A DNA stretch of 64,000 bases from Candidatus Aenigmatarchaeota archaeon. GTDB lineage: Archaea; Aenigmatarchaeota; Aenigmatarchaeia; GW2011-AR5. Positions 29,540-46,119 of this stretch are shown piece by piece. The notes beneath the pieces are model-generated. The model had not been told where the DNA came from. It ran no database searches and worked only from the letters and a program-made list of their open reading frames with translations. The stretch is taken from contig JACQID010000008.1 of the NCBI GenBank assembly GCA_016198685.1, positions 32,001-96,000 of the forward strand, written 5' to 3'. The position numbers and the translations under genes are program-made. The number at the start of each line of letters is the position of its first letter. Position 1 is the stretch's first letter.

Positions 29540-30481
29540 ATGAAAAAAGCGTTTCTATCCCGCATGCCTGCAGGGATTTTCATATTTGACGAGGCTCAAA
29601 AGCTCCTGGAAGCCCGTTTTTTCTCCAAAAATCCGGTTGAAGCGGCTGAAGAATATGAAAAACCTCTAACTTTAGCAGGTTATGAAATAAGGCCGGACGA
29701 CAGCCTGGGAAGGGCATTGGCCAGAAAAATATCGGTGGAAAAGGGCCATTTTTCTTCGGACCATGAGTATACTGAATTCTTGTCCGGTTTTGCTGCGGCA
29801 TTTTCGCTTAAGAAGCTCGAAGGGTCGGTAGGCAAAGACAAGCTGCTTCAGCAGAGCATGAACGCTTTGCTTGAGCTGGAAGACATGGAAAGCATGCTCG
29901 GTACGCGGTTGAAAGAATGGTTCACTCTGCATTATCCTGAAGAGCGCTCTCAGGGCAAAGAGCTCGGCAAGAAAGTTGCTGAATTTGGCAAAAGAGAAAA
30001 CTTTCCGGGGTTTGCGGGATCTACAGGGGTTGCAATGGATTCTATTGATGAAGCCGCAGCACGGAAATACGCGTCACTCTTTCTTGCAACTTCTGACTGT
30101 AGAAGAGATACAGAAGCTTATATCAGAAATCTTGCCGAGAAAGTCATGCCAACTACATCTACTATAGTTAATCCGATGCTGGCAGCCCGATTGCTCGCGC
30201 ATGCAGGCTCATTGGAGAAGCTCTCGAGAATGGCTGCATCCAGCATCCAATTGCTTGGCGCGGAAAAAGCTTTGTTCAGGCATATCAAGAATCAGGGCAA
30301 ATCGCCAAAGTACGGCATAATATTCATGGATCCAAGGATACAATCCGCCCCGCCGGAAACAAAGGGCAAAGTCGCGCGCGCGATAGCCGCCAAAATAATG
30401 GTGGCTGTAAAAATAGACTTCTTTTCGCGCAGAAAAGATGAGACTTTAGCAAAACAACTGGAAAAGGAGCTGGCAGCATGA
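29540..30481 (+). CDS. nop5: Box C/D RNP protein Nop5 (Nop56/58)
   Basis: LKEWFTLHYPE, ASSIQLLGAEKALF, SPKYGII, KGKVARAIAAK. Confidence 0.93.
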   Translation: MKKAFLSRMPAGIFIFDEAQKLLEARFFSKNPVEAAEEYEKPLTLAGYEIRPDDSLGRALARKISVEKGHFSSDHEYTEFLSGFAAAFSLKKLEGSVGKDKLLQQSMNALLELEDMESMLGTRLKEWFTLHYPEERSQGKELGKKVAEFGKRENFPGFAGSTGVAMDSIDEAAARKYASLFLATSDCRRDTEAYIRNLAEKVMPTTSTIVNPMLAARLLAHAGSLEKLSRMAASSIQLLGAEKALFRHIKNQGKSPKYGIIFMDPRIQSAPPETKGKVARAIAAKIMVAVKIDFFSRRKDETLAKQLEKELAA

Positions 30482-31173
30482 AAGCTGCATTTTTTGACAT
30501 GGACGGCGTTTTGAGCCGCGGGCATTACATGTTCAAGATATGGAGATATTTCTATGGCCAGGGTTATATGTCGCGGGAGAACCTCAAATCATTACTTTCT
30601 GTTGTCAATTCGTACCTCTTGAGAAAGATAGATTATCGTGAGTTTACGAAGAAAACAATAGAAATAGCGGCATTATGCGTAGCCGGTTGCGAAAGGCAGT
30701 TAATACAAAATTCAATCGATGATTTTTTGCGGAAGAAAGGTCTGTCTCTGTTCCCATACAGCGTAGATCTGATACGCTTGTTTAAGAATAACGGTTACAG
30801 AACGATTATAATATCAGGTTCTACAATCGAGCTCCTGCAAGCATACAACAGGCACATAGGCGCTGATGAAATCCACGGCACGATATTTGAAACTATGGAC
30901 GGAATATTCACGGGCAAGGTTGACATGAATATGTCATTGAAGGAATCGAAGCAGAGTGCCATGGATTCTTTGAAAGGCATAGACATGGAGAAATCTTTCG
31001 GCTTTGGCGACACTGACCAGGACATAGCCATGCTTGAAAAAGTCGGGCATCCTGTGGCTCTTAATCCGACAAAACCGCTCAAGAAGATCGCTACTGCCCG
31101 CGATTGGACAATTCTCACAAAGAAGGACGATGTAGTGACGCAAGTCGCGCAGATGATGGAGGGGCATTTATGA
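30478..31173 (+). CDS. HAD-IB family phosphatase (SerB-like)
   Basis: AFFDMDGVL, ISGS, FGDTDQDIAML, PVALNP. Confidence 0.9.
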   Translation: MKAAFFDMDGVLSRGHYMFKIWRYFYGQGYMSRENLKSLLSVVNSYLLRKIDYREFTKKTIEIAALCVAGCERQLIQNSIDDFLRKKGLSLFPYSVDLIRLFKNNGYRTIIISGSTIELLQAYNRHIGADEIHGTIFETMDGIFTGKVDMNMSLKESKQSAMDSLKGIDMEKSFGFGDTDQDIAMLEKVGHPVALNPTKPLKKIATARDWTILTKKDDVVTQVAQMMEGHL

Positions 31174-31820
31174 ACGAAATATTCCCAGGGGTCTTCCGCG
31201 ACGGAAAGAAGCTATACACGATTAATTTTGCTCCCGGCAGGAAAGTTTACGGCGAAAAATTGATAAAAAAAGACGTTGAGTTCAGGGAATGGACACCTGA
31301 AAGAAGCAAGCTCGGCGCTGCAATAGCAAACCGCATGAAAGTCATGCCAATAGGCATTCAGAGCTCAGTTTTATATCTGGGGGCGTCAACAGGCACGACC
31401 GTTTCTCATGTCAGCGACATAGCACGCAACGGCATTGTGTATGCTCTTGAATTTGCCGAGCGCGTCTTCAGACCCCTTCTGGAATTGCAGAAGTTCAGGA
31501 AGAATATCGCGCCTATTCTTGCTGATGCACGAAAGCCAGAAACATACTCTTGGATCGAGACATGCGATGTCGTCTTCGCAGACGTGGCACAGCCTGACGA
31601 AACGGAAATCGCGATAAGGAACGCAAAAATATTTCTCAAGAAGGGCGGCTATGTGATGGTTTCAATCAAATCGCAAAGCATAGACGTGACAAAGAACCCA
31701 AAGGATGTTTACCGGGAGGAGGCCTCAAAGCTTGAAAAAGCGGGCTTCTCTGTCGAAGAAACTGTCAATTTGGAACCGTACGAAGACAAACACGCGCTTA
31801 TCGTAGCGAAGTATCTCTGA
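31170..31820 (+). CDS. flpA: Fibrillarin, rRNA/tRNA 2'-O-methyltransferase
   Basis: FREWTPERSKLGAAI, VLYLGASTGTTVSHVSD, DVAQP, LEPYEDKH; start MNEIF at 31170. Confidence 0.96.
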   Translation: MNEIFPGVFRDGKKLYTINFAPGRKVYGEKLIKKDVEFREWTPERSKLGAAIANRMKVMPIGIQSSVLYLGASTGTTVSHVSDIARNGIVYALEFAERVFRPLLELQKFRKNIAPILADARKPETYSWIETCDVVFADVAQPDETEIAIRNAKIFLKKGGYVMVSIKSQSIDVTKNPKDVYREEASKLEKAGFSVEETVNLEPYEDKHALIVAKYL

Positions 31821-44058: not shown

Positions 44059-45882
44059 ATGAAAGAAAAGAATGCGCACAGCGCGCAGAACGTACAGAAG
44101 ATTGTACCCGATACCAGCGTGATAATATCCGGCATACTGTCGGATCTGGTGAAGAAAGGCGAATTGAAAGGGATAGAGATTATAATTCCAGAATTCGTTG
44201 TAGAGGAGCTCCGCTCCCAGGCATCCCGCGGCCGCGAGATCGGCTTCAAGGGTCTGAGGGAACTGAAGGAAATCCGCGCCCTTGAGGAAGAAAAGAAGCT
44301 TACTGTCATAAGAACAGGCAGACGCCAGACAATGGAAGAAATCCAGCTTGCCAAGTACGGCAGGATAGACGGACTCATAGTTGACGTCGCCAAACAGGAA
44401 AAAGCGGTTCTTTACACTTCTGATCGTGTCCAGCATCTGGTCGCTGAAGCCGAAGGTGTAGTTTCGGTATTCTTTGAGCCTTACCAGAAAAAGGAGACGG
44501 TTCTTGCAAAGATGCTCACAGACGATACAATGAGCTTGCATCTCAAGGAAAAATGCGCGCCTATGGCCAAGCGGGGAAGACCTGGCGAAATGAAGCTTGT
44601 GAAAATATCAGACGATCTTCTTACAGAAGAGCAAATGGAATCTATAATAAAAGAGGTCATGGATGCATGCCGGTACGAGGAGGATTCGTTCCTTGAAGTG
44701 GACGGTCATACAGCCAGCGTAGTTCAGATGGGCAATATGCGTATTGCAATAGCAAGGCCGCCGTATTCTGACGGCATAGAAATCTCGGTTGTAAGGCCAA
44801 CAGCGAAGCTTACGCTTGACGATTACAAGCTTTCTGAGAAACTGAAGAAGCGCCTCGAAGGCAAAGCCGAAGGTATACTGCTCTCCGGCCCCCCAGGATC
44901 GGGAAAAAGCACTTTCGCCGCGTCATTGGCGGAGTTCTACGAAAGCAAAAGCAAGATAGTAAAGACCATGGAATCGCCGCGTGATCTTCAGGTGAGACCG
45001 GAAATAACGCAGTACACAAAATTGAAAGGAAGCTTTGAGAATACGGCAGACATGCTTCTGCTTGTTCGTCCGGATTATGTAATCTTTGATGAAGTCCGCA
45101 AGACCAACGACTTCCATGTTTTTTCGGACATGCGCCTTGCAGGCATAGGCATGATAGGCGTTGTGCATGCAACAGATCCGGTAAGCTCGGTTCAGCGTTT
45201 CATTGGCAGGGTTGAAATGGGCATGATACCGCATATCGTAGATACGGTCGTGTATATCAAGGACGGCAAGGTAGGCAAGATATATACCCTCTCACTCATA
45301 GTCAGGACGCCTACCGGCATGACGGAAGCCGATTTGGCAAGGCCGATAGTGGAAGTACGCGACTTTGAAAGCAATGCCCTTGAATATGAAATATACAGTT
45401 ACGGTGAAGAGAACGTCATAATACCTGTCAAGGAAGAGGCAACTTCTGCAGTGCAAGAATTGGCTAAGAAACAAATTCTTGCAGAATTGCGCAAATACGA
45501 CAGGAACGCAGAAGTCGAATTCCTTTCTGACAACAGCATAACGGCATACGTAGAGAACGATGTGATGGCAAGAATAATCGGCAAAGAAGGCCGCAACATC
45601 AAGGAACTTGAAGAAAAACTTGGCTTGAGGATAGACGTTTCTCCAAGAGTCGCCACTATGGGCAAGGAAGCCAAGTTTGTCTACGACGAATCGGGCGGAT
45701 ACATACTCTTTAACTTTAACGAGCGGCTTCAGGGCCATGTAGCGAATTTTCACGTTGACGGCGAGTATCTGTTCTCGGCGACCATAGGGAAAGGAGGAAG
45801 CGTCCGGGTTTCGAAAACAAGCGACACGGGCAAGGAACTAATGAAGGCATTGGTCAAGGGAAGCCTCACTACATTCGTGTAG
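44059..45882 (+). CDS. PIN-ATPase-KH protein (PINA family branch-migration ATPase)
   Basis: N-terminal PIN (VPDTSVII), GPPGSGKST, LLLVRPDYVIFDEVR, GVVHA, KH IIGKEGRNI. Confidence 0.92.
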   Translation: MKEKNAHSAQNVQKIVPDTSVIISGILSDLVKKGELKGIEIIIPEFVVEELRSQASRGREIGFKGLRELKEIRALEEEKKLTVIRTGRRQTMEEIQLAKYGRIDGLIVDVAKQEKAVLYTSDRVQHLVAEAEGVVSVFFEPYQKKETVLAKMLTDDTMSLHLKEKCAPMAKRGRPGEMKLVKISDDLLTEEQMESIIKEVMDACRYEEDSFLEVDGHTASVVQMGNMRIAIARPPYSDGIEISVVRPTAKLTLDDYKLSEKLKKRLEGKAEGILLSGPPGSGKSTFAASLAEFYESKSKIVKTMESPRDLQVRPEITQYTKLKGSFENTADMLLLVRPDYVIFDEVRKTNDFHVFSDMRLAGIGMIGVVHATDPVSSVQRFIGRVEMGMIPHIVDTVVYIKDGKVGKIYTLSLIVRTPTGMTEADLARPIVEVRDFESNALEYEIYSYGEENVIIPVKEEATSAVQELAKKQILAELRKYDRNAEVEFLSDNSITAYVENDVMARIIGKEGRNIKELEEKLGLRIDVSPRVATMGKEAKFVYDESGGYILFNFNERLQGHVANFHVDGEYLFSATIGKGGSVRVSKTSDTGKELMKALVKGSLTTFV

Positions 45883-45884
45883 CT

Positions 45885-45978
45885 CTTTAAAACCCACCGC
45901 TTGAAAGCGGTGGATTTGCACATCGAATTCCCGTTGTTTCATCCGCCGTGTTAATACGGCGGAATTCGATGTTTAAAG
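45885..45978. repeat. Double-hairpin palindromic element, IS200/IS605-end or MITE-like
   Basis: CCACCGCT-TGAA-AGCGGTGG (45894-45913); ACATCGAATTCC/GGAATTCGATGT (45920-45931, 45961-45972) with nested CCGCCGT/ACGGCGG. Confidence 0.55.
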
Positions 45979-46003: not shown

Positions 46004-46119
46004 GCTCGCGTAGCTCAGCTTGGACAGAGCACTTCCCTCCTAGAGGTGACCTGAGCCGCAAGGCGATGAAGATTCCTGGAGTGAGGAAGGGGTCGCGCGT
46101 TCAAATCGCGTCGCGGGCG
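46004..46119 (+). tRNA. tRNA-Arg(CCT) with canonical 41-nt intron (46043-46083)
   Basis: CTTCC CT CCT A^A GGAAG; perfect central helix CUCC/GGAG; intron stem AGG/CCT. Confidence 0.95.

Follow-up and report, generated by a model that had tools for sequence, protein, structure and literature searches.

To our knowledge, archaeal guide RNAs hosted by introns are known only for tRNA-Trp and for one unassigned tRNA-Met case, acting on their own tRNA. The first is the C/D guide in the euryarchaeal pre-tRNA-Trp intron, described in Haloferax volcanii and, as sR50, in Pyrococcus (Clouet d'Orval 2001; Singh 2004; cited in PMC7994747). The second is the 66-nt intron of elongator tRNA-Met in Nanoarchaeum equitans, which yields a stable C/D-like RNA with no assigned target (Randau 2012, PMC3491384). 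Another RNA of N. equitans, sR13, is complementary to 16S rRNA positions 1531-1540, and Am1534 has been measured in that organism (Seistrup 2017, PMC5389701); in Ignicoccus hospitalis, Cm1533 has been measured and no guide is known (PMC5389701). As to how small such a particle may be, a half-mer C/D RNA assembles with L7Ae, Nop5, fibrillarin and target in a crystal of the Pyrococcus furiosus RNP (Xue 2010, described in PMC6239191), a crystal form that was judged inactive (PMC6239191). Permuted or circular C/D sRNAs are also documented (PMC3491384, PMC7994747).

The intron considered here interrupts a tRNA-Arg(CCU) gene in the window, i.e., the whole 64,000-nucleotide stretch of DNA that was analysed, which is part of a 935-kb archaeal assembly that is 94% complete. 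In our opinion, there is about an even chance (roughly 0.5) that this intron, judging by its sequence and that of its relatives, is a cut-down, permuted C/D-type methylation guide aimed at 16S rRNA and not at its own tRNA. The features on which this reading is built are collected in Table 1.

Table 1. Features of the tRNA-Arg(CCU) locus and of the guide-RNP protein genes, in positions of the window
Feature	Position	Strand	Remarks
Nop5 and fibrillarin matches	30020-31814	+	Nop5 30020-30472 (C3:62020-62472), fibrillarin 31179-31814 (C3:63179-63814); same window
TTTAAA, likely archaeal TATA box	45972-45977	+	about 30 nt upstream of tRNA start
tRNA-Arg(CCU) gene	46004-46119	+	exons 46004-46042 and 46084-46119; anticodon CCU 46039-46041
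Anticodon stem CUUCC/GGAAG	46032-46036/46085-46089	+	flank of splicing motif
Central 4-bp helix CUCC/GGAG	46037-46040 with 46078-46081	+	sequence reading
Intron, 41 nt, position 37/38	46043-46083	+	canonical hBHBh' motif
Antisense (guide) GAGGUGA and spacer C	46043-46050	+	antisense 46043-46049, spacer 46050; positions 8 to 1 upstream of D'-like box
Outer helix AGG/CCU	46044-46046 with 46075-46077	+	sequence reading
D'-like box CUGA	46051-46054	+	non-bulged strand: A = 1n, G = 2n, U = 3n, C = 4n
Canonical (C) helix GCC/GGC and GNRA loop GCAA	46055-46064	+	sequence reading
C'-like box	46065-46072	+	GAU bulge 46065-46067, tandem sheared GA 46068-46069, AGA 46070-46072
Last intron base G	46083	+	guide position 9 in circle, completing GGAGGUGA

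The tRNA at 46004-46119 is missed by default tRNA scans. Its score is 45 bits when the region is searched by itself with the tRNA model of Rfam. Aragorn, run with the option for introns (-i), returns a tRNA-Arg(cct) and places its 41-nt intron at 46043-46083, exactly the interval that had been proposed from the letters of the DNA in the prediction from which this work started (hereafter the original prediction). The intron has the features of an archaeal bulge-helix-bulge motif: two 3-nt splice-site bulges, 5' UA/G and 3' UG/A with the slash at the cut, lie around the 4-bp helix CUCC/GGAG, which is in turn bounded by flanking helices. This canonical splicing structure has a free energy of -15.7 kcal/mol, as against -17.1 for the unconstrained minimum. 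RNAfold applied to whole pre-tRNAs gave no significant z-score; because the program cannot model kink-turns, thermodynamic folding alone speaks neither for nor against the kink-turn described below. Upstream of the gene, an ORF of 607 aa ends at 45882, and inverted repeats fill the interval 45890-45977 before the tRNA promoter: one of 13 nt at 45890-45917 and one of 17 nt at 45915-45977, the latter enclosing an 11-nt repeat and overlapping the TTTAAA. These may be terminator and regulatory hairpins.

Within the intron, the order of elements is GAGGUGA, C, CUGA, GCC-GCAA-GGC, GAU, GA and AGA. The segment 46051-46072 has the sequence features of a kink-turn, with a helix, a 3-nt bulge and tandem sheared G.A/A.G pairs that open the non-canonical helix; the three bases of the AGA are A (3b), G (4b) and A (5b), of which 3b pairs with the U and 4b with the C of CUGA. 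The anatomy given in the original prediction, i.e., a GNRA-capped helix, a 3-nt bulge ending in U, tandem G-A pairs and then A-U and G-C, is thus the one that the sequence supports. CUGA and AUGAAGA together form a C/D-box kink-turn, AUGAAGA departing from the C-box consensus RUGAUGA by a single mismatch, at the position that covaries with the D box, and the order of the boxes is permuted, D' preceding C'. No second kink-turn or GA-GA motif was seen, either within the 41-nt intron or where its ends would be joined in a circle, and the two box motifs with two guides about 12 nt apart that characterize a canonical C/D sRNA are absent from the window's intron. The Rfam C/D families sR1 and sR17 match at chance level only (E = 2 and 7.7).

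Relatives of the element were sought in 371 genomes of the phylum with a strict pattern consisting of the antisense, the box, a hairpin of 6-36 nt and a C'-like box. The pattern matched in 32 of the 371 genomes, all of them in the window's order, and in 27 of the 43 genomes of the window's family; its reversed control matched in 1 of 371. Every match lies in the 37/38 intron of tRNA-Arg(CCU), with the exception of one genome (G040), where there is no adjoining 5' exon. In that genome, the element and a tRNA-Arg 3' exon (L051, G040:C6:1480-1830) have neither an anticodon loop nor a 5' exon upstream; the gene may be split, permuted, or interrupted by a further large intron. Because the strict pattern demanded the antisense, the census was repeated with the flanking exon sequences as its only anchor. 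It should be noted that most copies were first found by the pattern that demands the antisense and that the exon-anchored census lifts this bias only for the exon variants allowed. In this second census, an intron of at least 12 nt is present in 42 of the 70 genomes of the order, and all intron-bearing Arg(CCU) genes carry GGAGGUGA and the kink-turn, with three exceptions: G021, whose intron is 13 nt long, G054, which has an unrelated intron of 60 nt, and a second gene copy in G224. The antisense was thereby found in 36 of the 43 genomes of the window's family, and also in families f2 and f8.

The second copy in G224 (L180, G224:C62:3060-3300, minus strand) has CGAUGAUGA immediately after GGAGG, having lost the D'-like box and hairpin but no other part of the intron; it may be a decayed paralogue or come from a mixed-strain contig. 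Many orthologous Arg(CCU) genes (L007, L012, L013, L019, L029 and others) have extra introns in the D-arm or T-arm beside that at 37/38. A looser pattern (exon, GA and ATGA) run over the order was of no use, its reversed control giving just as many matches, and the strict pattern run against all public genomes was swamped, among the matches listed, by chance matches in bacteria. In two species of the window's own genus, the Arg(CCU) gene is intronless, and the pattern search found no equivalent element; the guide is therefore dispensable or replaced there.

Covariation among the orthologous introns, which the original prediction had named as a check, provides strong evidence that the kink-turn is under selection. 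The 38 copies tallied contain 34 distinct hairpins with stems of 2-12 bp, and the first three stem pairs beside the box and the bulge are paired in 100, 100 and 97% of copies, with four to six pair types each. Compensatory changes extend beyond the stem: the 4b-4n pair is G-C in 33 of the 38 copies and A-U in the other 5, while at 3b-3n, 23 copies have U-A, A-U, G-U, U-G or G-C, 11 have C.A, and 4 have U.U or C.U. Of the 35 unique copies, 21 have a standard pair at 3b-3n, and only 7 of 10000 shuffles gave as many; this is not to be read as a probability, since related genomes are not independent. The D'-like box of the relatives is CUGA, CAGA, CCGA, UUGA or UGGA and covaries with the C'-like box. 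The sheared GA/GA and the bulge-final U, on the other hand, never change in the 38 copies. GAGGUGA is likewise invariant in all 38, although the anticodon stem of the tRNA varies.

The invariant antisense has a complement in the same genome, where the 16S gene ends in ...GGAUCACCUCCU, an 8-nt Watson-Crick match to GGAGGUGA. An 8-nt match between the junction of the intron ends and the 16S anti-Shine-Dalgarno (anti-SD), directly before a D box, had been foreseen in the original prediction, and it holds for the organism's own 16S 3' end, with 7 of the nucleotides already contiguous in the linear RNA. Guide positions 2-9 are complementary to 16S positions 1532-1539 (E. coli numbering), and by the N+5 rule position 5 stands opposite C1535. 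In silico, then, the arrangement is that of a C/D guide: an antisense upstream of D' whose fifth nucleotide faces C1535 of a stable RNA. Among the stable RNAs of the genome, TCACCTC is found only at the 16S 3' end and in no other rRNA or tRNA. In all long forms of the intron (see below), positions 2-9 match the 16S without a mispair, and in the 19 genomes of the family whose assemblies include the 16S tail, this reads GGAUCACCUCC throughout.

The rule used for counting guide positions can be calibrated in the organism itself, because its tRNA-Met (C6:223654-223788, plus strand) and tRNA-Trp (C6:153949-154101, minus strand) introns are likewise built around one kink-turn, and in both, guide position 5 stands opposite C34, the classical site. 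Each guide pairs over 7 nt of its own anticodon loop, beginning at position 2 and in the register of the Arg(CCU) guide, so that a duplex of 8 bp, which the original prediction had considered short for a guide, is not out of line. A further intron of this kind occurs in a tRNA-Arg(UCU) gene (L026, G021:C4, minus strand), whose kink-turn is composed of AGGA, GCGU-GUAA-ACGC and UAUGA-AU, preceded by UAGAAG, with position 5 opposite U34 of its own tRNA.

These self-directed introns bring up the question of whether the Arg(CCU) guide might also address its own tRNA, GGAGGUGA pairing with nt 28-35 of pre-tRNA-Arg(CCU) and either directing ribose methylation or shaping the anticodon arm. We consider this doubtful. 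Since CCUCCUA occurs both at tRNA nt 31-37 and in the 16S tail, only the UGA of the guide discriminates between the two targets; GGAGG is complementary to nt 31-35 in every copy, and with the commonest anticodon stem, CUUGC (14 of 34), positions 2-9 pair fully with nt 28-35 if two G-U pairs are counted. Self-direction also has a precedent in the tRNA-Met and tRNA-Trp introns of the genome and in the tRNA-Arg(UCU) intron of G021. However, where the Met and Trp guides have their fifth position on nt 34, one of the two nucleotides (34 and 39) modified in such systems, that of the Arg(CCU) guide falls on nt 31, and not on 34, 32 or 39; we know of no modification at tRNA nt 31. Moreover, the pairing with nt 28-35 varies among relatives. 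It is broken beside nt 31 in the window's tRNA, where a U stands opposite C30, and in 6 of the 8 anticodon-stem variants, and the guide never compensates. Cis pairing would also leave a 3-nt loop in the minimal introns described below, because the guide abuts A37 in them. A self-target at the wobble base was rejected: with position 5 on C34, only 4 of 7 pairs are Watson-Crick.

One family bears on the choice between the two targets. In family f7, all six 16S 3' ends (G042, G048, G052, G055, G231 and G060) read ...GGAUCACCUCA instead of ...CCUCC, C1539 having been lost. The sole f7 element (G042) has A instead of G at guide position 9 despite an unchanged C35 in its tRNA. Guide position 9 here appears to follow the 16S and not the tRNA, which points the same way as the other evidence for a 16S target, although it is a single case.

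The introns of the relatives are of two kinds. The long ones, of 52-107 nt, have the module closed off by a terminal stem of 5-7 bp, and their linear RNA contains the whole of GGAGGUGA on the 9-11-nt side of an asymmetric loop that has about 3 nt on the other side; several of the longest have an extra hairpin at the 3' end. In the nine short, or minimal, introns (40 to about 80 nt, the window's included), GAGGUGA follows directly after A37, and three guide bases also serve in the outer splicing helix. Of the minimal introns, 9 of 9 have G as their last base, compared with only 4 of the 22 long introns (Fisher p ~4e-5, a value overstated by relatedness). In the window, the intron ends in ...GAGUG, and a circle would read G joined to GAGGUGA, i.e., GGAGGUGA. 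Since all nine minimal introns end in G, ligation would restore the ninth guide base just where it has been lost from the linear RNA. The proposal that the circular junction creates the antisense therefore stands for the minimal introns; in most relatives, by contrast, the whole word is already present in the linear RNA. The genome also encodes RtcB, the archaeal ligase for both exon joining and intron circularisation.

The Arg(CCU) introns of family f2 (L178:1-271, G037; L179:1-271, G050, minus strand), 85-87 nt in length, are built differently. They comprise a C-like AUGACGA, 12 nt ending in the same antisense GGAGGUGA, a D'-like AUGA, a 7-bp hairpin, a C'-like AUGAUCA, another 12 nt, and GAGA. 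Spacers of 12 nt are a hallmark of archaeal C/D sRNAs, and the f2 introns look like a complete two-guide C/D sRNA around the same antisense. As a target for their second spacer, an 8-nt match in the 16S of the window's genome was considered and set aside, being within chance expectation. The f2 form is the probable ancestor of the minimal forms, and the introns may be arranged as a reduction series from a full C/D RNA through a half-mer with a terminal stem to the minimal form of about 36-41 nt, a direction of change that we infer from the forms themselves. Because the long relatives are competent as linear RNAs and one family has what seems to be a full two-guide C/D RNA, the window's intron is probably the end of this series.

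These forms also bear on a reading in which the intron has no function in trans. The kink-turn would then be a structural or processing aid, L7Ae binding serving to present a relaxed splicing motif, and GGAGG would be the ordinary pairing between anticodon and intron. The central 4-bp splicing helix of the long forms is indeed weak, with 2-3 of 4 pairs, so that a protein-stabilised scaffold could help, and the loss of the intron in close relatives would fit the lack of an essential trans role. We nevertheless regard this explanation as unlikely, since it leaves much unexplained: the invariant UGA and the spacing of the boxes; the placement of the word in an open loop of 9-11 nt, apart from the bases of the splicing motif; the 12-nt spacers and additional C- and D-like boxes of f2; and the fact that the Met and Trp introns, which share the design, are aimed precisely at nt 34.

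The intron leaves the pre-tRNA by way of the canonical bulge-helix-bulge. According to the preferred reading, a 16S-directed guide, RtcB would join the exons and circularise the intron. The excised 41-nt RNA, presumably stable and probably circular, would contain one kink-turn (CUGA, the capped stem and GAUGA-AGA), to which L7Ae and then Nop5-fibrillarin would bind. The 8 nt just upstream of CUGA would pair with 16S 1532-1539 in the anti-SD tail, and C1535, opposite the fifth guide position, would be 2'-O-methylated during maturation of the small subunit. As a minimum outcome, the RNP would hold, and so mask, the 16S tail for a time. The protein genes for such a particle are present: those for Nop5 and fibrillarin lie in the window itself, and that for L7Ae at C1:248935-249207. 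Counting against the guide reading are the short duplex, of 8 bp, or 7 bp where the minimal form is linear, the sharing of three guide bases with the outer splicing helix in the minimal forms, and the single kink-turn; efficient archaeal C/D RNPs normally use two. The minimal intron-encoded sRNA of the original prediction, acting as guide or anti-SD binder, gains from the conserved kink-turn, the invariant antisense and the 16S match, but with its one kink-turn it is not a canonical two-motif C/D RNA like that of tRNA-Trp.

A stronger version of the preferred reading, which we hold to be distinctly unlikely, is that a circle of 36-44 nt is the only working form of the excised intron, the junction completing its antisense, and that it links how much of the rare-codon tRNA-Arg(CCU) is made to the condition of the anti-SD tail, through methylation of C1535 or masking by an SD mimic, thereby tuning SD-led initiation. 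If this were true, it would be the smallest natural guide RNP known.

Binding without methylation is the substance of a further alternative, in which a stable circle acts as a Shine-Dalgarno mimic: attached to the anti-SD of 30S subunits that are free or still immature, it would serve as a checkpoint in assembly or adjust SD-dependent initiation. It draws on the same complementarity and conservation as the guide reading, and a chaperone or checkpoint role has been proposed for sR13 on the same rRNA segment (PMC5389701). The usage of the word in the genome is also in keeping with it. GGAGGTGA and its complement are depleted (7 copies vs ~28 expected), as is GAGGTGA (36 vs 114 expected), and several copies stand 5-8 nt before an ATG; the organism, which has GAGGUGA-type ribosome-binding sites at some genes, thus uses this word sparingly and avoids it elsewhere. 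A mimic is, however, quite improbable in our opinion, as the full fibrillarin machinery is present and the spacing of the boxes obeys the geometry of methylation. Nor does a checkpoint need replacing, because RsmA/Dim1 homologues are present: the genome has three good RsmA/Dim1-family (RrnaAD) matches of similar strength (C6:39066-39680, C6:39983-40597 and C1:243963-244499), which rules out a link to loss of RsmA/Dim1 as in Nanoarchaeum. Two of the three stand in tandem on C6, an unusual situation in a 0.9-Mb genome.

That GGAGGUGA is instead the ribosome-binding site of a mini-ORF starting at the AUG inside GAUGA has a negligible probability: the circle does read AUG and 8 codons (9 in all) to UGA, but the distance from word to AUG varies from ~15 to 70 nt with the length of the hairpin, and the downstream frame is not conserved among the copies.

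In comparison with known systems, the Arg(CCU) intron is closest in setting to the tRNA-Trp intron guide, with which it shares C/D-type boxes in an anticodon-loop intron that is cut by the splicing endonuclease and can be circularised. The tRNA-Trp intron, however, has two box motifs and two guides acting on its own tRNA (Cm34 and Um39), whereas the Arg(CCU) intron has one kink-turn and one 8-nt guide, for which 16S is the best target. The tRNA-Met intron RNA of N. equitans resembles it in coming from an intron of a DPANN archaeon and in having one clear box pair and a GC hairpin; in the present genome, the tRNA-Met intron points to its own C34, and the Arg(CCU) intron does not point to its own tRNA in this way. 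What is new relative to these intron guides is the proposed rRNA target, the single kink-turn with an 8-nt antisense and, in the minimal form, a seeming dependence on the circle.

The likeness to sR13 is one of target, i.e., the same 16S segment, and the nucleotides methylated in N. equitans and I. hospitalis lie one or two positions from the predicted C1535. In contrast, sR13 is a free-standing two-guide C/D sRNA that pairs with helix 44 as well, and the present organism keeps RsmA/Dim1. The Arg(CCU) intron thus provides a concrete candidate guide for ribose methylation inside the anti-SD sequence. With respect to architecture, the D box precedes the C box and the stem is closed, as in a C/D motif that has been circularly permuted. 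The half-mers used in structural work are laboratory constructs, whereas the Arg(CCU) half-mer is natural and conserved, and its reduction series could be used to probe how little RNA a C/D RNP needs.

Finally, the eukaryotic intronic snoRNAs are similar in that an rRNA-directed guide is released from the intron of another gene. Their release depends on the spliceosome and exonucleases, while the Arg(CCU) element has a tRNA host and a protein splicing endonuclease. If the 16S-directed reading is true, a tRNA intron carries an rRNA-directed guide, an arrangement typical of eukaryotic intronic snoRNAs.
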